Shown here piece by piece: positions 1,241-25,251 of a stretch of 64,000 nucleotides of DNA. The stretch covers positions 3,834-67,833 of the forward strand of contig JBDTWY010000016.1 of NCBI GenBank assembly GCA_040006455.1, in the 5' to 3' direction. This DNA comes from Betaproteobacteria bacterium (GTDB lineage: Bacteria > Pseudomonadota > Gammaproteobacteria > Burkholderiales > Casimicrobiaceae). Positions within the stretch are counted from its first letter, which is position 1. Each line of letters begins with the position of its first letter. The notes beneath the pieces were generated by a model that worked only from the letters and a program-made list of their open reading frames with translations, ran no database searches and was not told the origin of the DNA. Made by a program: the position numbers and the translations under genes.

Positions 1241-3842
<2,602 letters not shown>

Positions 3843-4085
3843 GGTGCGTTGCCGGCGATGAGCCGACAGCGGGGTCGAAGGGGTTGCACCGGATTATACC
3901 GAGCGCCCTGTGCACCACTGTCGTGCGCCCGTTCGTGCGTATCGCCGCTGTTGCGGCCGCACGCGGGGACAGCCTTCACAGCGCCGGTGGCGGTGGCACG
4001 CAATGCGCATGACGGTGCCCGACCCGTCGTCAGCAAATTGTAAGGTGAGCCGGCAATCCATTATCCTTGCAGTGGGAGGTGGGGA

Positions 4086-5168
4086 ATGTCGGCGACGGGG
4101 GAATCGCGGTCTTGTGCCTGGCATGCGGTGGGCGGCGCGCCCTCGCATCGGGTCGGCGGATGGCGGGTATCGCGTGTGCGCGCGAAGCGCAGGTTCGGCA
4201 TTTCGCGCCGCGGCGTCATCGTCGCGGCGACCGCGTTCGCATGCGCCGGCCAGGCGTTGCTTGCGCATGCGCAGTTCGGCGACAGGCCCGTGACACTGGT
4301 GGTGGGCTCGTCGCCGGGCGGCGGCGTCGACCGTACCGCGCGGCTGCTGGCGCCCGAGCTTGCGGGGCAGCTTCACCAGAACGTCATCGTCGAGAATCGC
4401 GCCGGCGCGGGCACCCGGCTCGCCAGCGAATACGTGGCCAAATCGGCGCCCGACGGACGCACGCTGCTGTTCACCACCGGCGAGTCGACGATCGACCTCG
4501 CGTTCGATCCGCAAGCGACTCCCAACATCCTGAAGGACCTGGTGCCGGTATCGCTGGTCGCCGTGTGCCAGATGCTGCTCGTGATCAACGCGTCGCTGCC
4601 CGTGCGCGACGTGACGGAACTGCTGGCGCGCGCTCGCGCGGCGCCGGGCAAGCTCAACTATTCGACCGCGGGCGTCAAGACCACGATGCACCTCGTCGGC
4701 GCGCTCTTCGCACAGCGCACCGGCACTGACATCGTGCACATTCCCTACAAGGGCACCATGCCGGCGCTGGCGGCGCTTATGGCGCGCGACGTCGACATGA
4801 CTTACGCGTCGTTGCCGTCGGCGCTGCCGTTCGTCGAGTCGGGGAGGCTGCGCGCGCTGGCGGTGGCAGGCAGCCGGCGGTCGTCGTTGATGCCGGACGT
4901 GCCGACCTTGGCGGAGTCCGGGGTCACGGGCGTCCAGGCGAATATCTGGTACGGATTGCTCGCGCCCGCCGGCACGCCGGCCGACATCGTCGACGCGCTC
5001 GCTCGCGCCGTCAACGCGGCGTCGCGGTCGGCCGATTACCGGCAGAGCCTCGCGACCATGGGAGAGGAGCCGTCGCCGGGCACGCCGGCCGCGTTCGGCG
5101 AACTGTTGCAGGACGATGTGAGCAAATACGGCGCCGTCATCAGGGCCGCCCGGATACCCGCCGAATGA
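4086..5168 (+). CDS. Bug/TctC-family periplasmic solute-binding protein (tripartite tricarboxylate transporter receptor family)
   Basis: Family-typical strings: PVTLVVGSSPGGGVDRTARLLA, NRAGAGT, HIPYKG, NIWYGLLAPAGTP. A strong SD (GGGAGGTGG) precedes the ATG at 4086. An in-frame GTG at 4176 would give a shorter signal peptide. Confidence 0.85.
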   Translation: MSATGESRSCAWHAVGGAPSHRVGGWRVSRVRAKRRFGISRRGVIVAATAFACAGQALLAHAQFGDRPVTLVVGSSPGGGVDRTARLLAPELAGQLHQNVIVENRAGAGTRLASEYVAKSAPDGRTLLFTTGESTIDLAFDPQATPNILKDLVPVSLVAVCQMLLVINASLPVRDVTELLARARAAPGKLNYSTAGVKTTMHLVGALFAQRTGTDIVHIPYKGTMPALAALMARDVDMTYASLPSALPFVESGRLRALAVAGSRRSSLMPDVPTLAESGVTGVQANIWYGLLAPAGTPADIVDALARAVNAASRSADYRQSLATMGEEPSPGTPAAFGELLQDDVSKYGAVIRAARIPAE

Positions 5169-6193
5169 CCATAGTCCGATGTCTTCCAAAGTCGGTGCGC
5201 TGCGCCAGCGCGCGCGCAGCCGTCGTCGCTGGCAACGCGGTCGTCGCGCTGGTGGCCGTTTGCATGTTCGGTGCCCAGCCGCTGCCGGCGCGCGCGGCAT
5301 TGGGCGAGCAGACGGTGACGCTGGTGCTGAGCAGCGCGCCCGGCGGCGGTATTGATCGCATGGCCCGGCTGCTTGCGCAACGGCTCTCCCAGCAACTCCA
5401 TCGCAACGTCATCATCGAGAACCGGCCCGGTGGCAGGTCCAGGCTCGCGGCCGACCATGTGTCGAAAGCGCCAGCGGACGGCAACATGCTGCTGATCACG
5501 ACGGGAACGTCGACGATCGACCTTGCGTTCGACCCGCGCACGCGCCCCAACGTGATGCAGGATCTGGTGCCCGTATCGTTGCTCGCGAAGTGCCAGATCG
5601 TGCTGGTCGTGAATCCGGCGCGGCAGCTCACCACCGTGCAGGCGCTCGCGGCGCGCGCGCGCGCCGCGCCGGGCACGCTCAACTCGGCCACGTCGGGCGT
5701 GATATCGACGATGCGCATCGTGTCGGAGCTTTTCAGGCAGCGCATCGGCGCCGACATCGTGCAGATTCCCTACAAGGCCGAAGTGGAGACGTCGACCGCC
5801 GTCGTCGGCGACCGTGTCGACATGGCATTCGTTACGCTGCCCTCGGTGCTGCCGTTCGTGAATTCGGGACAGGTGCGCGCACTGGCCATCGCCGGCGCAC
5901 AGCGTTCGCCGATGATGCCCGGCGTGCCAACGCTGACCGAATCCGGCCTGCCAGGCATCGAGGCGACGGTTTGGTACGGATTGTTCGCGCCGGCGGGCAC
6001 GCCCGCCGACGTCGTCGACGCGCTCGCGCGCAGCGTCGAGCAGGCGTCGACATTCCCCGGCTACCGGCAAGGCCTTGCGGCGATGGGCATGGAGCCCGCA
6101 CCGATCGCGTCCGCAGCCTTCGTCGCGATGCTGCGCGACGAAGTGGTCAAGTTCCGCGCCGTCATCGAGACCACGAACATTCGCCCCGAATGA
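5165..6193 (+). CDS. Bug/TctC-family periplasmic solute-binding protein (paralog of the upstream gene)
   Basis: Same family strings: TVTLVLSSAPGGGIDRMARLLA, NRPGG, QIPYKA, VWYGLFAPAGTP. Its ATG overlaps the upstream stop (ATGA at 5165-5168). Confidence 0.85.
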   Translation: MTIVRCLPKSVRCASARAAVVAGNAVVALVAVCMFGAQPLPARAALGEQTVTLVLSSAPGGGIDRMARLLAQRLSQQLHRNVIIENRPGGRSRLAADHVSKAPADGNMLLITTGTSTIDLAFDPRTRPNVMQDLVPVSLLAKCQIVLVVNPARQLTTVQALAARARAAPGTLNSATSGVISTMRIVSELFRQRIGADIVQIPYKAEVETSTAVVGDRVDMAFVTLPSVLPFVNSGQVRALAIAGAQRSPMMPGVPTLTESGLPGIEATVWYGLFAPAGTPADVVDALARSVEQASTFPGYRQGLAAMGMEPAPIASAAFVAMLRDEVVKFRAVIETTNIRPE

Positions 6194-8817
6194 CGATGTC
6201 GCCCATCGACGCCAAACCCGCAATCGACTCCTGCGACCTGCCAATGAATGCACCGATGCCACTGCCTGCCGGCGCCGCGACAAGCGCGGTCGAAACCATC
6301 GCGACCCGGCTCGCGCGCTTCGCGCAACGTTCGCCCGACGCCGTCGCGCTCATCGACAGTGACGCGCGCGTGACATGGGCGGATCTCGACGCCGACGCCA
6401 CGGCGATCGCGCGACGGCTCCTCGACATCGGCAATGGCGTCAACGGCCATGTGTGCCTGTTCTTCCGCGACAGGCGATCCGCGGTGGCGTCCATTGTCGG
6501 CACCGCACGCGCGGGAGGCGTCTACATACCGTTCGATCCCGCCGATCCGGAGGAGCGGCTGCGTTTCATGCTCGACGATGCCGCGCCGATCGCGATGCTC
6601 ACCGAACCGTCGCTGGTCGAGCGCGCACGGGCGCTCGCGCCTGCGGGTTGCGTGATCGTCGACGTCACCGTGCTCGAGCGCGGCGCAGCCGGCGGGGCGC
6701 TGCCGCAGGTCGACGGCAACGCGACCGCGCATCTTTACTACACGTCGGGCTCGACCGGCCGGTCGAAAGGCGTGCGCCAGACGCACGCCAACCAGCTTTT
6801 CTTCATCGACTCCTATGCCAGGGCCGTCGGCATCGGTGAAGGTGACAGGCTGTCGATGCTCTACTCGCTGAGCTTTGGCGCGGGCCTCGGCGGTATCTAC
6901 CGCGGCGTGGCGCTCGGCGCGACGCTGTGCGCGTACGACATCAAGCGCGATGGCATCGCCGGCCTCGCCGACTGGCTCGACCGCGAGCGCATCACCTCGT
7001 TGCAGACCTTCCCGATGGTGTATCGCGAGCTTGCGCAAACGCTCGGCGCCACCCGGGTGTTCCCGCATCTCGAGGTGCTGCACCTCGGCGGCGAATCGTT
7101 GTACGCGCGCGACGTCGAGCTCTTCCGCGCGCACACGGTCCCGCACTGCAAGCTCGTCCACCAACTGGCCGCCACTGAGATCAGCCTGATCGCGCAGAAC
7201 ATCCTGCGGCACGACAGCGTGCTGTCACCGGGCCCGATCGTGCCGGTCGGCCGGCCGATCGAAGGCGTGCACCTCGAGATTCGGCGCGACGACGGCAGCC
7301 TCGCGGGGCCGGACGAGCCGGGTGAGCTGTTCGCCTGCAGTCGCCACGTCAGTCCCGGCTACTGGAACCGGCCCGAGCTCGATGCCGTCGCGTTCTCCGC
7401 GGATCCGCGCGTGCCGGGCGGTCGTTGCTACCGCACCGGCGACTTCGGACGCATCGATGCGGCAGGCGACCTGCATTTTCTCGGTCGCACGGGAAGCCGC
7501 GTGAAAATCCGCGGCTACACGATCGACCTCGCCGAAATCGACGCGGCGCTCGCCGCGTGGCCGCAGGCGGCGGGCGGCGCCGCAGCCGCGGAGAGCGACG
7601 ACAACGATCCGGCGTCCGCCCGGCTCGTTGCCTACGTCGAAGCGCGTGAGGGTGCCGCACGCGATCCGGCGGCGTGCAAGCGCTTCCTCGCGGGCAAGCT
7701 GCCGCTGCACATGCTGCCGGCGGAGATCCGCTACCTCCGCGAGATGCCGCGGACCCCCGGCGGCAAGCTCGACCACAAGCGGCTTGCGGGTGCCGAGAGG
7801 CTGCCTGCGGACACGGTTCGCGCTGCGCCGAGTCGCGGCGCGGCGCCGCGTGACGCCACGCAAGCGGCGGTCGCGCACGTCTTCGAGGAGCTTCTGAAGG
7901 TCGAAGGCGTCGGTCCCGACGACGACTTCTTCCTGCTGGGCGGCGATTCGCTGATGGGCGCCGACCTGCAGGCGCGCCTCAAGGACACCTTCGGCGTGCG
8001 CATCGGCAATTTCCACCAGGATGCGACGGTGGCGGGCATTGCCGCCAGCATCCGTCGCGGCATCGCGCAGGCGCCGACGCAGTCGCGCGCGATCCCGATG
8101 CTGGTGCCGCTGTGGCCGGGCGGCCGCGAGACGCCGCTGTTCATGGTGCATGGCCGTCACGGCCAGGCATTCTTCAGCCCGCATTTCATGAAGCTGCTCG
8201 GCGACGAGCAGCCCGTGTGGGCGTTGCAGGCGCGCGGCCTCGACGGCATCAGCGAACCGCACGCCACGATCGAGGCGATGGTCGACGACTACGTGGCGGA
8301 AATTCGCAACGTGCGCCCGCACGGGCCCTATTTCCTGGGCGGCCTGTGCGTCGGCGGCTTCGTCGCCGCGGCGATGGCCCGCGCGCTGCGCGCCGCGGGC
8401 GAGGAGGTGCTGCCGCTGCTGCTGCTCGATCCTCCCAATCGCGTGCGCGCGCGTACCGAGGCACACGCCGATCCGGCGCACGTGGCGGCCAAGATGCAGG
8501 CGCGACGGGCGGCGGGCCGGATCCTCGGGCCGATGGAGGATCCCGCGTATCTCGACGCGTCGGTCCGCGCCGCAGCGGCCTTCGACGACGCGATCGCGCG
8601 CTACCGGCCGCTGCCCTATGACGGCGCGGTCTACGTGCTGTCGAGCCGCCATCGGATGCAGATGATGGATCCGCTGGAGCTGCGAACGATCTTCACCGGT
8701 CGCTACAAACGCTACGAAGTCGGGCAATCGCATGGCCATGCGCTCGACCCGCGCAATCCGGTGTTCGCGCAGACGCTGACGCGCTGCGTCGACCTGATTC
8801 GCGCTGCGTCGATCTGA
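6190..8817 (+). CDS. stand-alone NRPS-like enzyme with adenylation, thiolation (PCP) and thioesterase domains
   Basis: A-domain cores: YYTSGSTGRSKGV (A3), YRTGDFGR (A7), GRTGSRVKIRGYTIDLAEID (A8), PRTPGGKLDHKRL (A10). PCP motif FFLLGGDSLMG. TE motifs LFMVHG and GGLCVGG. The start was placed at the ATG at 6190, overlapping the Bug stop (ATGA). The 5590 start in the track lies inside the upstream gene. Confidence 0.85.
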   Translation: MTMSPIDAKPAIDSCDLPMNAPMPLPAGAATSAVETIATRLARFAQRSPDAVALIDSDARVTWADLDADATAIARRLLDIGNGVNGHVCLFFRDRRSAVASIVGTARAGGVYIPFDPADPEERLRFMLDDAAPIAMLTEPSLVERARALAPAGCVIVDVTVLERGAAGGALPQVDGNATAHLYYTSGSTGRSKGVRQTHANQLFFIDSYARAVGIGEGDRLSMLYSLSFGAGLGGIYRGVALGATLCAYDIKRDGIAGLADWLDRERITSLQTFPMVYRELAQTLGATRVFPHLEVLHLGGESLYARDVELFRAHTVPHCKLVHQLAATEISLIAQNILRHDSVLSPGPIVPVGRPIEGVHLEIRRDDGSLAGPDEPGELFACSRHVSPGYWNRPELDAVAFSADPRVPGGRCYRTGDFGRIDAAGDLHFLGRTGSRVKIRGYTIDLAEIDAALAAWPQAAGGAAAAESDDNDPASARLVAYVEAREGAARDPAACKRFLAGKLPLHMLPAEIRYLREMPRTPGGKLDHKRLAGAERLPADTVRAAPSRGAAPRDATQAAVAHVFEELLKVEGVGPDDDFFLLGGDSLMGADLQARLKDTFGVRIGNFHQDATVAGIAASIRRGIAQAPTQSRAIPMLVPLWPGGRETPLFMVHGRHGQAFFSPHFMKLLGDEQPVWALQARGLDGISEPHATIEAMVDDYVAEIRNVRPHGPYFLGGLCVGGFVAAAMARALRAAGEEVLPLLLLDPPNRVRARTEAHADPAHVAAKMQARRAAGRILGPMEDPAYLDASVRAAAAFDDAIARYRPLPYDGAVYVLSSRHRMQMMDPLELRTIFTGRYKRYEVGQSHGHALDPRNPVFAQTLTRCVDLIRAASI

Positions 8818-8840
8818 TCCGCGAGGCGTCGACCACGGCC
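8781..8840 (+). repeat. imperfect 20-bp tandem repeat (3 units) spanning the stop codon of the NRPS-like gene
   Basis: The units are gcgctgcgtcgacctgattc, gcgctgcgtcgatctgatcc (18/20 identical) and gcgaggcgtcgaccacggcc (13/20). Confidence 0.7.
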
Positions 8841-8882
8841 TGACGATCGCCTCCCGCGCGCGTAAAACCTTTCGCCGCGCGA

Positions 8883-9452
8883 TCAGCCCGGCGCCGGCAC
8901 CCACAGCGTGGTGATGCCGAGAATCACGAACAGGATCGCCGTCGCGATGCGCACCACCCTGAACGGGATCTTTTTCGCGGCGATGCCGGCGAACAGCACC
9001 GTCGGCACGTCGACGATCAACATGCCGAGCGTGGTGCCGGCGACCACCGGCAGCAGCGTGCCGAAGCGCGACGCGAGGATCGCCGTGGCGACCTGCGTCT
9101 TGTCGCCCATTTCCGCCAGGAAGAACGCGACCGTCGTCACCCAGAACACGCCATGCGTCGACAACGCCGGTGCTTCGGACTCGTCCAGCGTGTCGGGCTT
9201 GAGCGCCCACGCGGCGACCGCGAAGAACGACAGCGCGACGATCCAGCGCAGCGTGTGCTCGGGAACGACGTTGCGGACCCATGCGCCGACGGCACCTGCG
9301 AGCGTGTGGTTGACCAGCGTCGCGGCGAGAATGCCGGCGATGATCGGCCACGGCCGGCGGAAACGCACCGCCAGCAACATTGCCAAAAGCTGCGTTTTGT
9401 CGCCAATTTCGCCCAACGCGACGACACCGGCGCTGACCAGGAACGATTCCAA
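8883..9452 (-). CDS. UPF0016/GDT1 (TMEM165)-family membrane protein, putative Mn2+/Ca2+ transporter
   Basis: 189 aa with two copies of the signature E-x-G-D-K-T motif (GEIGDKTQ and AEMGDKTQ) in a polytopic hydrophobic protein. Confidence 0.8.
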   Translation of the reverse strand: MESFLVSAGVVALGEIGDKTQLLAMLLAVRFRRPWPIIAGILAATLVNHTLAGAVGAWVRNVVPEHTLRWIVALSFFAVAAWALKPDTLDESEAPALSTHGVFWVTTVAFFLAEMGDKTQVATAILASRFGTLLPVVAGTTLGMLIVDVPTVLFAGIAAKKIPFRVVRIATAILFVILGITTLWVPAPG

Positions 9453-9575
9453 GAGGTAGCGGACTAAAGGTGGCCTTCGCCGTCGCGGACGGAGAGGGCG
9501 CGGAATGGAATGGCACTATTATAGGTTGGCTCAATCTCGCGCCCTCGGGGCGCCGTCCCTGCCGATCGTGACGAC

Positions 9576-11711
9576 GTGAATTCGATGACTTCCCGCGCGA
9601 CCTTGATACTTGCCGCCGCGCTGGCGCTCGCGCCGGCTGGGGCCGCGGCCGCGCCGGTTCGCACCGGGCACGTCGAAGCCGAGCTGATCGCGCAAAAGAC
9701 GGCGTTCATCCCGGGCGCCGACAACGTCGTCGCATTGCGGCTGACGCTGGACAAGGGCTGGCACACGTACTGGCGCAATCCGGGCGATTCCGGCCTGCCG
9801 ACGACGCTCGAGTGGAAACTGCCGGCCGGCGTCAGCGCGGGACCGATCGAATGGCTGCCGCCGCAGCTATTGCCCGCGGGGCCGCTCACCAACTACGGAT
9901 ACGAGGACGTCGCGCTGCATCCGGTGACGCTGCGCACGGCGCCGGCGTTCAGCGGCGCGCAGGTGGTCACGCTCGCCGCGCGCGCCGACTGGCTCGTGTG
10001 CCGCGAGACTTGCATACCCGAAGGCGCCGACCTGACGCTCTCGCTACCCGTCGCGCCCGACGCCGTCGACGATCCACGCGACGGTGCGCTGATCACGGCG
10101 GCGCTGGCGACGCTGCCGGGGCCGCTGGATCGCAGGGGTTGGAAGGCCGACGCGCGCGGCGACGGCCAGCACGTCGTCGTCGCGCTGACGCCACCCGGCG
10201 GCGCCGCCGATCCCGGCGCGTTGCGCTTCTTCCCCGACGACGATGGACGGATCGAGCCCTCGGGTGCGCAGAAACTCGCGCGCAGTGGCGAGCGCTACCT
10301 GCTCACACTGCCGGTCGCCTACCAGCTCGACAAGGGCTTCGTGCGCGTCAAGGGCCTGGTGACGGCGGGGGGCAGCGGATTCGCCGGCGCACGCGCGGCG
10401 ACGATCGACGTGCCACTAACCGGCGCCGTCGTCGCAGGACCCAAGCCGCTCGACGCGGCGCCGGCGCCGCGCCTCGACGTCGCCCCTGCAAGCGGCGGCA
10501 TGACACTCGCGCTCGCGGCATTGTTCGCATTCGTCGGCGGCATGATCCTCAACCTGATGCCATGCGTGTTCCCGGTGCTGTCGCTCAAGGTGCTCGGTTT
10601 CGCGCAACGCCAGGACAACCGCGCGACGATGCGCCGCGAAGCCTACGCATTCACCGCGGGCGTCATCGCCACGTTCGTGCTGCTCGCAGCGCTTCTGCTG
10701 GCGTTGCGCGCCGCCGGCCTGCAACTCGGCTGGGGCTTCCAGTTGCAATCGCCGCTGGTGGTCAGCGCATTGGCGACGCTGTTCTTCGTGCTCGGACTCA
10801 ACCTGGCCGGCGTGTTCGAATTCGGCCAGGTCGTGCCGGCGTCGATGCGCGGCTGGACCAGCGACAATCGCACGCTCGACGCGTTCGGCTCCGGTGTCCT
10901 CGCTGTGGTCGTGGCGTCGCCGTGCACGGCGCCGTTCATGGGTGCGGCGCTCGGCTTCGCGCTGTCGCAGTCGACATGGGCGACGCTGGCAATCTTCGTG
11001 ATGCTCGGCGCCGGCATGGCGCTGCCCTATGCGCTGCTGGCGCTGTTCCCGGCGTGGCAGCGTCGCCTGCCCCGGCCCGGCGCCTGGATGCTGCGCTTCA
11101 AGCAGGTGCTCGCATTCCCGATGTTCGCCACCGTCGCCTGGCTCTCGTGGGTGCTCGGTGCGCAGGTCGACAACGACGCCGTGCTGCGGCTGATGCTGAT
11201 GCTGCTGTTGCTGGCGTTCGCGCTGTGGGCGTGGCACGCGCGACGGCTGGGCGGCGGGCGCGGTTACGTGGTCGCGGCGATCGCCGCGGTCGCCGCCGTG
11301 CTGGCGCTGGCGCAGCCGCTGGCGACGCTGGAGTCGGCGCCGCCCGACGCATCGACGGCGCGGCGCAACACCGACGGCTGGCAGGCGTTCGCGCCGGCGA
11401 CCGTCGACGCGATCACGATGTCGGGGCGGCCGGTGTTCGTCGACTTCACCGCGGCGTGGTGCGTGACCTGCCAGGTCAACAAGCGCACGACGCTCGGGCG
11501 CCCGCCCGTGCGCGACGCGTTCGCGCGCGCCAACGTCGCGCTGCTGCGCGCCGACTGGACACGCCGCGATCCGCAGATCACCGCGGCGCTGGCGGCGCTC
11601 GGCCGCAACGGCGTGCCCGTCTACGTGCTGTACCGGCCGGGCAAGGAACCCTTGCTGCTTCCCGAAATTCTCACTCAACAGGCGGTATTCGACGCGCTGG
11701 CGACGTTGTAG
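9576..11711 (+). CDS. DsbD/ScsB-family protein-disulfide reductase (N-terminal periplasmic domain, CcdA-like membrane core, C-terminal thioredoxin)
   Basis: Signal peptide, N-terminal Cys pair (LVCRETCIPEG), central multi-TM region with the PCVFPVL motif, and C-terminal FTAAWCVTCQ thioredoxin motif. Confidence 0.85.
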   Translation: MNSMTSRATLILAAALALAPAGAAAAPVRTGHVEAELIAQKTAFIPGADNVVALRLTLDKGWHTYWRNPGDSGLPTTLEWKLPAGVSAGPIEWLPPQLLPAGPLTNYGYEDVALHPVTLRTAPAFSGAQVVTLAARADWLVCRETCIPEGADLTLSLPVAPDAVDDPRDGALITAALATLPGPLDRRGWKADARGDGQHVVVALTPPGGAADPGALRFFPDDDGRIEPSGAQKLARSGERYLLTLPVAYQLDKGFVRVKGLVTAGGSGFAGARAATIDVPLTGAVVAGPKPLDAAPAPRLDVAPASGGMTLALAALFAFVGGMILNLMPCVFPVLSLKVLGFAQRQDNRATMRREAYAFTAGVIATFVLLAALLLALRAAGLQLGWGFQLQSPLVVSALATLFFVLGLNLAGVFEFGQVVPASMRGWTSDNRTLDAFGSGVLAVVVASPCTAPFMGAALGFALSQSTWATLAIFVMLGAGMALPYALLALFPAWQRRLPRPGAWMLRFKQVLAFPMFATVAWLSWVLGAQVDNDAVLRLMLMLLLLAFALWAWHARRLGGGRGYVVAAIAAVAAVLALAQPLATLESAPPDASTARRNTDGWQAFAPATVDAITMSGRPVFVDFTAAWCVTCQVNKRTTLGRPPVRDAFARANVALLRADWTRRDPQITAALAALGRNGVPVYVLYRPGKEPLLLPEILTQQAVFDALATL

Positions 11712-22094: not shown

Positions 22095-23711
22095 GTGGCC
22101 GGCAACCGCAGCCGCTTCGACGCCGTGATCATCGGCGGCGGCCACAACGGATTGGTTTGCGCCGCGTATCTCGCGGCGGCGGGGCAGTCGGTGTGCGTCG
22201 TCGAGCGTCGCGATGTCGTCGGTGGTGCTGCGGTCACCGAGGAATTTTATCCGGGTTTCCGCAATTCGACGGCGAGCTACACGGTGAGCCTGCTCGATCC
22301 CGCAGTGATCCGCGACCTGCGGCTGCACGAGCATGGCCTCGAGATCGTCGAGCGGCCGTTCGCCAATTTCCTGCCGCTGTCGCCGACAGAGTCGCTGCGC
22401 GTCGGCGGCGGCCTCCTGGCGACGCAAGCCGAGGTCGCGCGCTTTTCCTCGCGCGACGCCGCGCGGCTCCCTGACTACTACGCGATGCTCGATCGCGTCG
22501 CCGACGTGCTGCGCGATCTGCTGCATGCAACGCCACCCAACGTCGGCGCGGGCATGCCCGCGCTGCTCGATGCGTGGAAAGTCGCCAGGCGCTTTCGCGC
22601 GCTCGATCGTGCGGGCCAGCGCGACGTGCTCGACCTCTTCACCAAGAGCGCCGGCGAGTTGCTCGACCATTGGTTCGAGTCGGCGCCGATCAAGGCGGCG
22701 TTCGGCTTCGACGCGGTCGTCGGCAACTTCCAGAGTCCCTATACGCCGGGCTCGGCGTACGTGCTGCTGCACCACGTGTTCGGCGAGGTCAACGGCAAGC
22801 GCGGCCAGTGGGGACATGCGCGCGGCGGCATGGGATCGATCACGCAGGCGATGGCGAAGGAATGCGCGGTGCGCGGCGTCGACATCCGCGTCGCGAGCCC
22901 GGTTGCACGTGTCGTCGTCGACAACAAGCGCGCCGTCGGCGTCGAGCTCGGCGACGGCGAAGTCGTGCGCGCGCGGCGCGTGGTCGCCAACGTCAATCCA
23001 CGGCTGCTGTTCCAGCAGTTGCTGGCGCCGGAGCACGTCGATGCCGACTTTCGCCGCCGCATCGAAAGCTACCGTTGCGGCTCGGGCACGTTCCGGATGA
23101 ACGTCGCGCTGTCGGCGCTGCCCGATTTCAGCTGCGCGCGCGGCACGCGCGCGGCGCCGCATCACGCCGCGGGTATCGTCATTGCGCCGTCGCTCGATTA
23201 CATGGAGCGCGCGTATTTCGACGCCAAGACGACCGGTGTATCCGCCGCACCCATCGTCGAAGTGCTGATTCCGTCGGTGGTCGACGACTCGCTGGCGCCG
23301 CCGGGGATGCACGTCGCCAGCCTCTTCTGCCAGCACGTGCACCCGCAGATGCCGGCGGTCAGCGGCCGCAGCTTCGACGACGCGCGCGACGACTTGGCCG
23401 ACCTGATGATCGCAACCGTCGACGCGATGGCGCCCAACTTCAAGGCGAGCGTCATCGGCCGGCGCGCGATGACGCCGCTCGACCTCGAGCGCACGTTCGG
23501 CCTGATCGGCGGCGACATCTTCCATGGCGCGTTGGGACTCGACCAGCTTTTCTCCGCGCGGCCGGTGCTTGGCAGCGCCGACTATCGGATGCCGCTCGCC
23601 GGCCTCTACCTGTGCGGCGCCGGCGCGCATCCGGGCGGCGGCGTCACCGGCATCCCCGGGCGCAACGCGGCGCGCGAGATCCTGCGCGACGTGCGTCGCC
23701 ACCGCCACTGA
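22095..23711 (+). CDS. phytoene-desaturase-family NAD(P)/FAD-dependent oxidoreductase
   Basis: Dinucleotide-binding motif FDAVIIGGGHNGLVCAAYLAAAG near the N-terminus and C-terminal GLYLCGAGAHPGGGVTG. Start set at the GTG at 22095, after the fabI stop; the track start at 22026 overlaps fabI. Confidence 0.8.
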   Translation: MAGNRSRFDAVIIGGGHNGLVCAAYLAAAGQSVCVVERRDVVGGAAVTEEFYPGFRNSTASYTVSLLDPAVIRDLRLHEHGLEIVERPFANFLPLSPTESLRVGGGLLATQAEVARFSSRDAARLPDYYAMLDRVADVLRDLLHATPPNVGAGMPALLDAWKVARRFRALDRAGQRDVLDLFTKSAGELLDHWFESAPIKAAFGFDAVVGNFQSPYTPGSAYVLLHHVFGEVNGKRGQWGHARGGMGSITQAMAKECAVRGVDIRVASPVARVVVDNKRAVGVELGDGEVVRARRVVANVNPRLLFQQLLAPEHVDADFRRRIESYRCGSGTFRMNVALSALPDFSCARGTRAAPHHAAGIVIAPSLDYMERAYFDAKTTGVSAAPIVEVLIPSVVDDSLAPPGMHVASLFCQHVHPQMPAVSGRSFDDARDDLADLMIATVDAMAPNFKASVIGRRAMTPLDLERTFGLIGGDIFHGALGLDQLFSARPVLGSADYRMPLAGLYLCGAGAHPGGGVTGIPGRNAAREILRDVRRHRH

Positions 23712-23715
23712 CGCG

Positions 23716-25251
23716 ATGACCGGCACGACGGCGTTCAACCTGGCCGAACGCCTCGCGCAGTCCGCGCGGCGCTGGCCCGACGCACCGGCGGTGGCGCGCG
23801 GCCTGACGATCGTCCACGACTACGCGGCGCTGGCGTTGCGTGTGGCGACGCTCGGCGCGGCACTGCGCGCCATGGGCCTCGGCGACGGCGTCCGCGTCGC
23901 GATCGTGTCGCGCAACGGCGTCGAATACATCGAGGCGCTGTACGCATGCTGGTGGGCGGGCCTCGTCGCCGTGCCTGTCAACGCCAAGCTGCACCCGCGG
24001 GAGCTCGCGTTCATCCTGGACGACTGCGGCGCGCGCTGCGTGCTGGTCGATCGCGAGTGGGCGACAACGCTGCCCGCGCTCGCCGCGAATGTGCGCGTCG
24101 TGGAGTTCGGCTCGGGCGACTACCGGCGCCTGTTCAGCGGCGCGCCGATTGCGGCGCCCGCGCGCTGCGATCGCGACGCCGCGGCGTGGCTTTTCTACAC
24201 CAGCGGCACGACGGGGCGGCCCAAGGGTGTCGTCATCACGCACGCCAACCTCGACGCGATGGCGACCTGTTTCGTGCGCGATGTCGAGGCGATCCTGCCA
24301 GGTGACGCGATCCTGCATCCGGCGCCGCTGTCGCACGGCTCCGGCCTCTATGTCGTGCCGCATATCGCCGGCGGCGCCGTCAACGTCGTGCCAGAGTCGG
24401 GCGGCTTCGACGCCGACGAAGTCGCGAAGCTCGTGTCGAACTGGAACCGCGCGCTGTTGTTCGCGGCGCCGACGATGGTCAAGCGGCTGGTGCGCAGCCC
24501 CGCGCTTGCCGGCGCGGGGCTCGAGCGGCTGAAGTGCATCGTCTTCGGTGGCGGGCCGATGTACGTCGCCGACTGCCGCGAGGCGTTCGCCGCGCTCGGT
24601 CCGCGCCTTGCGCAGATCTACGGCCAGGGCGAATCACCGATGACGATCACGGCGATGGACCGCGCGACGCTGGCGGATGCGATCGCGCGCGGCGACGACA
24701 CGCGCCTCGCATCGGTGGGAACCGCGCAATCGGGTGTCGAGCTGCGCATCGACGCCGGCTCGAAGGCGGACGCGCCGGCGGCGGGCGAAGTGCTGGTGCG
24801 CGCGCCGACGGTGATGCGCGGCTACTGGAACAATCCCGCAGCGACGGCGGCGGCGCTCGCCGATGGCTGGCTGCACACGGGCGACATCGGCACTCTAGCC
24901 GCCGATGGCTACCTGACGCTCAAGGATCGCAGCAAGGACCTGATCATCAGCGGCGGCAGCAACATCTATCCGCGCGAAGTCGAGGAAGTGCTGCAGCAGC
25001 ATTCGCAGGTCGCCGAAGTCGCCGTCGTCGGACGCCCGCATGGCGAGTGGGGCGAGGAAGTCGTCGCCTGCGTCGTCGTGCGCGACGGCGCCGACGCGCA
25101 AGCGGTCGAGCGCGAGTGCGACGCGCTGTGCATCGCGCGCATTGCGCGCTTCAAGCGTCCGAAGGCGTACGTGTTCGTCACCGCGCTGCCGAAGAACAAC
25201 GCCGGCAAGGTCCTGAAGACCGAGTTGCGCGGCATCGTCGCGGCGCGTTGA
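23716..25251 (+). CDS. AMP-dependent acyl-CoA synthetase/ligase
   Basis: FYTSGTTGRPKGVVITH, YGQGESP, WLHTGDIG, LPKNNAGKVLK. Start at the ATG (MTGTTAFNLAERL) just after the upstream stop. Confidence 0.85.
   Translation: MTGTTAFNLAERLAQSARRWPDAPAVARGLTIVHDYAALALRVATLGAALRAMGLGDGVRVAIVSRNGVEYIEALYACWWAGLVAVPVNAKLHPRELAFILDDCGARCVLVDREWATTLPALAANVRVVEFGSGDYRRLFSGAPIAAPARCDRDAAAWLFYTSGTTGRPKGVVITHANLDAMATCFVRDVEAILPGDAILHPAPLSHGSGLYVVPHIAGGAVNVVPESGGFDADEVAKLVSNWNRALLFAAPTMVKRLVRSPALAGAGLERLKCIVFGGGPMYVADCREAFAALGPRLAQIYGQGESPMTITAMDRATLADAIARGDDTRLASVGTAQSGVELRIDAGSKADAPAAGEVLVRAPTVMRGYWNNPAATAAALADGWLHTGDIGTLAADGYLTLKDRSKDLIISGGSNIYPREVEEVLQQHSQVAEVAVVGRPHGEWGEEVVACVVVRDGADAQAVERECDALCIARIARFKRPKAYVFVTALPKNNAGKVLKTELRGIVAAR

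Follow-up and report, generated by a model that had tools for sequence, protein, structure and literature searches.

Bug-type periplasmic receptors recurrently paired with a stand-alone adenylation-thiolation-thioesterase enzyme in uncultured soil Betaproteobacteria

The stretch of Casimicrobiaceae (Burkholderiales) DNA analysed here, 64 kb of contig JBDTWY010000016.1 and hereafter the window, contains a cassette of three plus-strand genes, in which two genes for periplasmic receptors of the Bug/TctC type, bug1 and bug2, precede the gene for a stand-alone nonribosomal peptide synthetase (NRPS)-like enzyme composed of adenylation, thiolation and thioesterase domains (A-T-TE). Comparison with related genomes revealed that the pairing of Bug receptors with the A-T-TE enzyme is non-random, conserved and mobile as a unit. 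On the basis of the domain composition, the substrate pocket and the distribution of the pair, a possible route from receptor-bound acid to released product is proposed below. The cassette and its parts are arranged as follows.

4055..4085, plus strand: upstream block AATCCATTATCCTTGCA (4055-4071) and Shine-Dalgarno (SD) sequence GGGAGGTGG (4074-4082) ahead of bug1; likely the promoter-proximal region and ribosome-binding site of the operon
4086..5168, plus strand: bug1, TctC/Bug receptor of 360 residues; start backed by the conserved SD
5165..6193, plus strand: bug2, paralogous Bug/TctC receptor of 342 residues with a signal peptide; start overlaps the bug1 stop (ATGA)
6190..8817, plus strand: stand-alone NRPS-like A-T-TE enzyme, 875 residues from ATG6190, or 853 if Met23 is the start
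6313..7767, plus strand: adenylation domain of the enzyme (residues ~42-526), from motif mapping checked against the HMMER alignment to LgrA
7870..8004, plus strand: thiolation (peptidyl carrier protein) domain, from Pfam PP-binding; Ser587 in LGGDSL, codon 7948-7950
8134..8814, plus strand: type-I thioesterase (PF00975); Cys720-Asp747-His848, codons 8347-8349, 8428-8430 and 8731-8733

The bug1/bug2 and bug2/enzyme junctions both read GAATGA, a 4-nt overlap of stop and start codons, and the sole SD of the cassette stands before ATG4086, no SD-like motif being found ahead of 5165, 6190 or the alternative starts. An earlier note on this DNA, made from the sequence alone, had described these chained open reading frames (ORFs) and the single strong SD correctly, and had proposed from them one translationally coupled unit. 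The operon structure is well supported, and the orthologous loci L001, L002 and L005 share the bug1/bug2 overlap, but coupling at the bug2/enzyme junction is not conserved: this overlap is usable in the window only, the orthologues begin the enzyme 64 nt past the bug2 stop, and the NCBI model of the identical protein (P0001, 853 residues) begins at Met23, 22 codons later. Because ATGA is a product of the conserved Glu-stop (GAA TGA) that ends the Bug genes, it is by itself weak evidence for coupling. The upstream block and the SD are likewise kept at L001, L002 and L005, and when the window was compared with the orthologous intergenic regions, AATCCATTATYCTTGCA followed by GGGAGG was found before bug1 in four loci.

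Both receptors match the 274-position TctC profile PF03401 (bug1, E 9e-70, positions 2-271; bug2, E 5e-56, positions 2-273) and are 57% identical to each other over 305 residues, which bears out their assignment as paralogous Bug/TctC proteins. By inspection, both translations display a basic n-region, a hydrophobic core and an AxA-type cleavage site; the N-terminal signal region of bug1 is long (…RRFGISRRGVIVAATAFACAGQALLAHA/QF) and is possibly of the Tat type. The nearest solved structures to bug1 are the terephthalate-binding protein, BugE, Bug27, BugD and AdpC, which align from residue ~62-69, and the Protein Data Bank (PDB) matches of the Bug proteins, with E values of 3e-59 to 4e-44, begin at residue ~62-71, past the signal. 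The majority of Bug genes are orphans whose TctAB membrane partners are encoded elsewhere, and such orphan genes usually adjoin the gene for a cytoplasmic enzyme that consumes their ligand.

In the enzyme, Pfam recognizes an AMP-binding domain (E 2e-52), a PP-binding domain (E 1.5e-9) and a thioesterase domain (PF00975, E 7e-20) and nothing else, and it finds no condensation domain in the enzyme or in the flanks, so that the description of the third gene as a stand-alone A-T-TE protein holds for all three domains. The NCBIfam model for amino-acid adenylation domains, TIGR01733, matches at E 1e-75, and NRPS adenylation domains in the PDB match at E 1e-106 (LgrA). More than 900 homologues were obtained in a protein search, and nearly all of the best 120 listed have the same A-T-TE length and architecture; these relatives come overwhelmingly from metagenome-assembled genomes of Casimicrobiaceae from soil and sludge, and searches of NCBIfam, the PDB and plasmid records found no characterized close relative of the family. 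In an alignment of 18 homologues, 50-68% identical to the window protein, the motif YTSGSTG, the A10 lysine Lys526 and the residues Gly584, Gly585, Asp586 and Ser587 are invariant, Ser587 being the predicted phosphopantetheine-attachment residue.

The substrate pocket was mapped at the GrsA positions 235, 236, 239, 278, 299, 301, 322, 330, 331 and 517, which correspond approximately to Gly230, Ala231, Gly234, Gln272, His298, Gly300, Gln325, Leu333, Ile334 and Lys526 and give a ten-position signature of about G-A-G-Q-H-G-Q-L-I-K, position 278 being the least certain. The A4 motif is SFGAG in the window enzyme versus FDxS in ordinary adenylation domains, the Asp of which binds the α-amino group of the substrate. 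In the HMMER alignment, Gly230 sits opposite the Asp of FSFD in both LgrA modules, and the family residues at this position are Gly, Ala, Asn or Ser; because the α-amino-binding Asp is thus replaced, an acid without an α-amino group is the probable substrate. Adenylation domains that recognize acidic side chains typically have His and Lys at positions 278, 299 and 322, and by analogy with the Asp- and Glu-specific ones the His and Gln residues at these positions may point to an acid with a further acidic or polar group.

The thioesterase domain has the nucleophile elbow G-L-C-V-G, and Cys720, Asp747 and His848 are invariant in the 18-homologue alignment. Of 77 aligned family members, 71 have Cys as the nucleophile and five distant ones have Ser, the remaining one being a thioesterase-truncated copy with a gap. 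In PDB alignments, Cys720 lies opposite the catalytic Ser of the skyllamycin thioesterase Skyxy-TE and opposite the Cys of AB3403 (GGWCFGG), and the closest relatives of the domain are cyclizing or hydrolysing NRPS thioesterases. The G-x-C-x-G-G box could also be read as that of a PhaC-like polyester synthase, a reading that was set aside because the domain matches NRPS type-I thioesterases. A thioesterase with a catalytic Cys has a precedent in ObiF1 (PMC10510592).

The distribution of the pair was examined by a scan of one genome per GTDB species, from which the best 77 of 369 matching loci were kept, with 1.31 Mb of flanks; the genome context of relatives was taken in part from the orthologue P0004. 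Pairs were counted by ORF-level phmmer, the gene caller having missed the enzyme in 14 loci with different codon bias, and a pair was defined as a same-strand Bug gene ending at most 400 nt upstream of an A-T-TE gene. Of the 85 A-T-TE genes in these loci, which also contain 30 Bug genes, 16 have a Bug gene immediately upstream, in 14 of the 77 loci, against about 0.05 pairs expected by chance, a figure based on the four Bug genes that lie elsewhere in the 1.31 Mb, the other 26 of the 30 being within or beside cassettes. At least nine unrelated genomic neighbourhoods contain the pair; for instance, it follows hemX/hemY in L032 and yggS-proC-yggT in L020, and it precedes a tripartite ATP-independent periplasmic (TRAP) transporter in L014. 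Over 15 pairs, Bug-Bug and enzyme-enzyme distances are correlated (r = 0.88, Mantel p <= 2e-4). All cassette Bugs except that of L020 score 260-450 bits against bug1, versus 167-235 bits for the four unlinked Bugs, and the cassette Bugs form a distinct subfamily.

The synteny of A-T-TE homologues with Bug genes that was to be looked for in other genomes is therefore present in 16 of 85 cases. It might still be argued that the adjacency has no functional meaning and that one of the numerous scattered Bug genes of Burkholderiales came to lie beside the enzyme by chance, since related metagenomic contigs are rich in Bug genes, often as arrays, and a Bug neighbour is absent for the majority of the enzyme family. 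This is made extremely unlikely by the excess of pairs over expectation, their spread over at least nine different neighbourhoods, the co-divergence of the partners, the short or overlapping same-strand gaps and the separate subfamily of the cassette Bugs. In a reciprocal scan, metagenome contigs were searched with an alignment of cassette Bugs and a sample of matches was listed; among the matches listed, only the closest Bug relative (L078, 55% identical) precedes an A-T-TE gene, and about 75 generic Bugs (~40% identical) are not followed by one. The "fixed" pairing of the earlier note thus stands as a non-random and conserved one, although only some branches of the enzyme family carry Bug genes. 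A literature search found no paper that pairs TctC/Bug with NRPS-like enzymes, and nothing relevant in papers on Casimicrobiaceae, in keeping with the view that the pairing is not a described system.

The pair at L020 is an outlier, with an enzyme of another pocket type and a Bug only ~35% identical to the other cassette Bugs, which suggests a second, independent recruitment of a Bug gene to the enzyme; the gene order there is Bug, A-T-TE, a SEC-C sulfotransferase (L020:12580-13422) and a creatininase-family gene. Bug genes that adjoin the enzyme gene on the opposite strand, in convergent or divergent orientation, were also observed (L027:12587-13669, L013:12641-13621 and L063:8709-9833, all on the minus strand), and the Bug of L027, with 344 bits against bug1, is no more distant from it than the cassette Bugs.

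At the site of the window cassette, which lies between leuS-lptE and GDT1-dsbD, the length of the array differs among six genomes.

Window, L001, L002: Bug-Bug-enzyme
L005, L158: Bug-Bug-enzyme-Bug-(A-T only)
L066: Bug-enzyme-Bug-enzyme-Bug
L006: seven-gene array, the first enzyme copy of which (L006:6662-8923) is thioesterase-truncated, without the nucleophile region

The A-T protein of L158 (L158:13787-15598) is a paralogue of 603 residues without a thioesterase, and L001 also has a decayed enzyme fragment from 12550 onward. From the variable arrays, the truncated copies and the decayed fragment, it is evident that tandem duplication creates copies of the unit and that decay removes them. 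Cassettes carry n+1 receptors per n enzymes, and the thioesterase-less or truncated paralogues of the arrays may allow cooperation in trans with a full-length enzyme. In the Bug loop S-x-G-x-G-T-T (bug1 residues ~193-200), the second Gly is replaced by Lys (as in Bug1), Ile, Leu, Met, Arg or Gln in the arrays at the leuS site and stays Gly in single-copy cassettes away from it. The variation of this loop among array paralogues is consistent with ligand diversification.

A survey of the enzyme family, for which a neighbour-joining tree was labelled with flanking genes and combined with a table of pocket residues, distinguished three recurrent types. The Bug-linked type has the pocket (A/G)-A-x-(H/Q)-H-G-Q-x-(I/V)-K. 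A sulfur-linked clade, with loci near position 10000 of L008, L012, L015, L017, L021, L023, L024, L029, L040 and L065, has the pocket N-A-M-H-D-G-Q-L-I-K. Its neighbours are a ~1000-residue fusion of GT2 and sulfotransferase, a 198-residue Sulfotransfer_2 protein, CysN/CysC for the synthesis of 3'-phosphoadenosine 5'-phosphosulfate (PAPS) and a divergently transcribed SsuA-like (aliphatic-sulfonate) binding protein, the last at E 5e-13, which is below the curated cut-off. This clade could be a minimal synthetase of sulfated products, and the combination of a Cys thioesterase with a sulfotransferase recalls the logic of SulM/SulN in sulfazecin biosynthesis. A widespread type, with the pocket S-A-M-H-D-G-H-V-I-K, occurs in Casimicrobiaceae, Pirellulaceae, Verrucomicrobiales and Azoarcus. 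It was seen beside a pyridoxal-phosphate enzyme with sub-threshold similarity to cysteate synthase (L034:12661-14867, L057 and L059:3291-4535), L034 and L057 having in addition a ThiO-like FAD oxidase, and such neighbours hint at a sulfo- or keto-acid substrate.

In the homologue P0111, the A-T-TE enzyme is fused to SEC-C and sulfotransferase domains in a protein of 1178 residues. A distant member was observed in Rokubacteria/Methylomirabilota metagenome-assembled genomes (L075:7954-14250 and L076), where its operon, made up of overlapping genes, also encodes two 4Fe-4S ferredoxins and a member of the aromatic amino acid lyase/aminomutase family. Bug linkage is limited to some branches, others being accompanied by sulfotransferase, PAPS and SsuA-like genes or by neither. 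Position 299 is His in 14 of 17 Bug-linked enzymes and Asp in most enzymes of the sulfotransferase-linked and other types. The pocket thus shifts with the neighbouring binding protein and tailoring genes, as a functional link predicts, with ancestry explaining part of this pattern.

The contexts of the sister branches give support to the main rival explanation, in which an endogenous precursor is turned by the enzyme into a small, secreted, acid-derived metabolite that the Bug proteins recapture or sense; the product might, for example, be a metallophore- or signal-like ester or lactone dimer, and the Bug proteins would bind it or its metal complex, as binding proteins do in siderophore clusters. 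The GT2-sulfotransferase fusion, the Sulfotransfer_2 protein, CysNC and the P0111 fusion are biosynthetic, the SsuA-like protein is an orphan binding protein of a different family, and the surplus of one receptor over the enzymes in cassettes would also suit this arrangement. However, in none of the nine or more contexts does a conserved exporter, TonB receptor or regulator accompany the cassette, and orphan Bug genes generally serve substrate uptake for the adjoining enzyme, so that we regard recapture or sensing, and likewise a product of the exemplified kinds, as unlikely but worth serious consideration.

The same sister clades, by adjoining glycosyl- and sulfotransferases, bear on a further alternative, an acyl-transfer machine in which an imported or endogenous acid is activated and carried on the thiolation domain, and the acyl group is moved by the Cys "thioesterase" to a cellular acceptor such as a glycan, lipid or small molecule. 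NCBIfam gives DltA-like and exosortase-associated ligase similarity for the enzyme, and the weak PDB matches of the thioesterase domain include Pks13 thioesterases. Nevertheless, no acceptor-making gene accompanies the Bug-linked cassettes, and the closest relatives of the thioesterase are the cyclizing or hydrolysing NRPS enzymes mentioned above, which together make such a transfer improbable.

The earlier note had placed the enzyme with RalA, TdiA and AtrA, A-T-TE synthetases that dimerize aromatic α-keto acids to furanones or quinones. A tblastn search of 72,556 plasmid and megaplasmid records with the window enzyme gave ordinary NRPS modules as its best matches, at 29-35% identity. The Ralstonia GMI1000 megaplasmid (pGMI1000MP) carries a stand-alone A-T-TE ORF of 937 residues (L159:28455-31268, by tblastn and Pfam), which we take to be ralA (putatively locus RSp1419), the record being unannotated; the first strong match in the pGMI1000MP stretch was discarded as a candidate for RalA, being an ordinary NRPS with condensation, adenylation, thiolation and thioesterase domains. 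The window enzyme is 25% identical to the 937-residue protein, with 16% gaps (E 4e-27), and the nucleophile of the latter is Ser (GYSYG) versus Cys in G-L-C720-V-G. The code presumed for aromatic keto acids, V-A-E-F-S-G-G-A-C-K, which a literature search did not find, would share with the window signature the loss of Asp235.

Membership of the RalA/TdiA class is unsupported, because the identity of 25% to the putative RalA is below the 29-35% to ordinary NRPS modules and because the nucleophile is Cys and not Ser. The polar, His/Gln-rich pocket of the window enzyme also appears to differ from the class code, which is hydrophobic in the presumed form given above. The common A-T-TE architecture, the absence of the α-amino-binding Asp and the thioesterase-less A-T paralogues of the arrays, which would suit two-unit condensation chemistry, speak for such a synthetase, and a two-unit condensation on the thioesterase is mechanistically possible; a furanone or quinone synthetase of this type is nonetheless very unlikely.

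The reading that we favour, though with somewhat less than even confidence, is that an exogenous acid lacking an α-amino group is captured by the receptors, thio-templated by the enzyme and released non-hydrolytically, in line with the possible link of acid uptake to thiotemplated conversion suggested in the earlier note. Bug1 and Bug2 would be exported to the periplasm, bind the exogenous organic acid and deliver it to a permease of the TctAB type, presumably encoded elsewhere. In the cytoplasm, the adenylation domain of the 875-residue enzyme would adenylate the same acid, a carboxylate without an α-amino group that, to judge from the His/Gln-rich pocket, may be of the di-/poly-carboxylate or hydroxy-acid type. 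The acyl group could then be bound in thioester linkage to the phosphopantetheine of Ser587 and passed to Cys720 of the thioesterase. Release could follow by cyclization, by ester or C-C dimerization, or by transfer to an acceptor. The identity of receptor ligand and enzyme substrate is assumed by analogy with the usual arrangement of orphan Bug genes, and a non-hydrolytic release is proposed because hydrolysis would be futile and because Cys thioesterases are known from ring-forming termini.

Several points weigh against this capture and non-hydrolytic release. TctA and TctB were not found by Pfam among the membrane proteins scanned in the 64-kb window, a check that covered two unidentified multi-transmembrane proteins and the LysE, ABC-2 and MlaE membrane proteins; the multi-transmembrane proteins of the window are DsbD, Mem_trans, Na_H_Exchanger, LysE, ABC-2 and MlaE, and neither TctA nor TctB lies within ±10 kb at the orthologous locus L158. 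The pocket positions rest on motif alignment and not on a structure, and the overlap of bug2 and the enzyme gene is particular to the window, as described above. Co-divergence demonstrates that the partners are linked as a unit, which need not mean that they share a ligand. Simple hydrolysis would make uptake and activation futile, so that an unproven non-hydrolytic step is needed, and the biosynthetic contexts of the sister branches fit a product that is made and exported at least as well.

A more far-reaching form of the capture scheme is precursor-directed thiotemplate synthesis from the imported acid, with receptor and adenylation pocket co-evolving as a mobile two-gene module; this might be so, although we think it unlikely. 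In this scheme, as the module diversifies by tandem duplication, thioesterase-less A-T copies might permit mixed products, and scavenged di-/poly-carboxylic or hydroxy acids of the soil would be converted to strained lactones or ester dimers. With similar reserve, the sulfotransferase-linked clade might be imagined as minimal single-module relatives of the Cys-thioesterase ring-forming systems, of a sulfazecin-like kind.

The cassette is flanked by housekeeping genes, of which leuS on the left and the UPF0016 gene on the right had been read correctly in the earlier note. By Pfam, the minus-strand genes lptE/leuS precede the cassette; after it come GDT1 (formerly UPF0016), likewise on the minus strand, and dsbD on the plus strand. 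The flanks hold no TctA/TctB, condensation, MbtH or tailoring genes. Beyond dsbD, further rightward, come a peroxiredoxin gene and a TetR-HlyD-ABC-OEP efflux operon. The element GGATTATACCG, which adjoins leuS, is kept in six of six loci (window 3880-4085, L001, L002, L005, L006 and L066) and reads TATAAT on the minus strand, likely the -10 element of leuS. Horizontal transfer of the cassette, as judged by composition, was rejected, because the GC content and the third-position GC content (GC3) of the three genes match the window mean. A riboswitch or other RNA upstream of bug1 was also rejected, the Rfam search of 3750-4250 having given no credible match (best E 0.17, an archaeal snoRNA). A scan of 3700-9600 for a consensus sigma-70 promoter gave no site, and terminator-like sites in the same region occur at the background rate only; in DNA of 68% GC with such a background, the scan is uninformative on operon boundaries.

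At the end of the enzyme gene, one further feature spans the stop codon.

8780..8834, plus strand: 20-bp tandem duplication, 2.8 copies (Tandem Repeats Finder score 82)

The second 20-bp copy shifts the frame, so that the enzyme ends in …RCVDLIRAASI* versus the homologue-like …RCVDLIREASTTA (…LIREASTTA). The repeat is a recent duplication or an assembly artefact and is probably harmless. Elsewhere in the window (22095-25251), a flavin amine oxidase gene is followed by one for a stand-alone AMP-binding ligase of 511 residues without a carrier domain, weakly similar to the cassette enzyme (E 1e-19); the two are probably an unrelated acyl-CoA ligase pair.

If the favoured scheme is true, hundreds of orphan Bug/tripartite tricarboxylate transporter (TTT) receptors of Burkholderiales would be linked with a family of single-module, Cys-thioesterase NRPS-like enzymes. 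Each cassette would then be a matched pair of receptor and enzyme, in which the ligand of the receptor predicts the substrate of the enzyme and vice versa. The tandem arrays provide a natural series for the co-diversification of binding-protein and adenylation-domain specificity, and the Cys thioesterase together with the sulfotransferase-linked clade points to possible strained-ring or sulfated small molecules, the possible producers being abundant, mostly uncultured soil and activated-sludge bacteria (Casimicrobiaceae).

Both components of the cassette are of well-known kinds, and an orphan Bug gene beside one for a carboxylate-activating enzyme is already a known pattern. With the orphan Bug/TctC (TTT) receptors TphC/TBP, AdpC and BugD/BugE, the cassette Bugs share the fold, the family and the signal peptides, as well as the lack of adjoining TctAB and the position directly upstream of a cytoplasmic carboxylate-activating enzyme. 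In contrast to those systems, the partner is a thiotemplate A-T-TE enzyme and not a CoA-transferase, CoA ligase or dioxygenase, the receptors co-diverge with the enzyme as tandem units, and the array copies have Lys, Ile, Leu, Met, Arg or Gln in place of the canonical Gly in the second carboxylate-binding loop. RalA, TdiA and AtrA resemble the window enzyme as stand-alone A-T-TE proteins without a condensation domain and, probably, in acting on a substrate that lacks an α-amino group; the cassette differs from them in having no aminotransferase or tailoring genes and in being associated with periplasmic receptors rather than with a secondary-metabolite cluster.

A Cys-Asp-His thioesterase after adenylation and thiolation domains is also found at the NRPS termini of ObiF1, which forms a β-lactone, of SulM, which forms a β-lactam after N-sulfonation, and of AB3403 of Acinetobacter baumannii, the GGWCFGG of which aligns with GGLCVGG of the window enzyme; the ObiF1 thioesterase is not among the sequence matches of the window domain. 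ObiF1, SulM and AB3403 have condensation domains and peptidyl intermediates derived from α-amino acids, unlike the window enzyme, a single A-T-TE unit without the α-amino-binding Asp. Finally, DltA/DltC, AlmE/F/G and the Pks13 thioesterase exhibit the same succession of adenylation, carrier thioester and release by an α/β-hydrolase fold, the similarity of DltA and of the Pks13 thioesterase to the window enzyme being weak. In contrast to these carrier-based acyl-transfer systems, the Bug-type cassette has no linked acceptor pathway, and the three functions are fused in a single enzyme.

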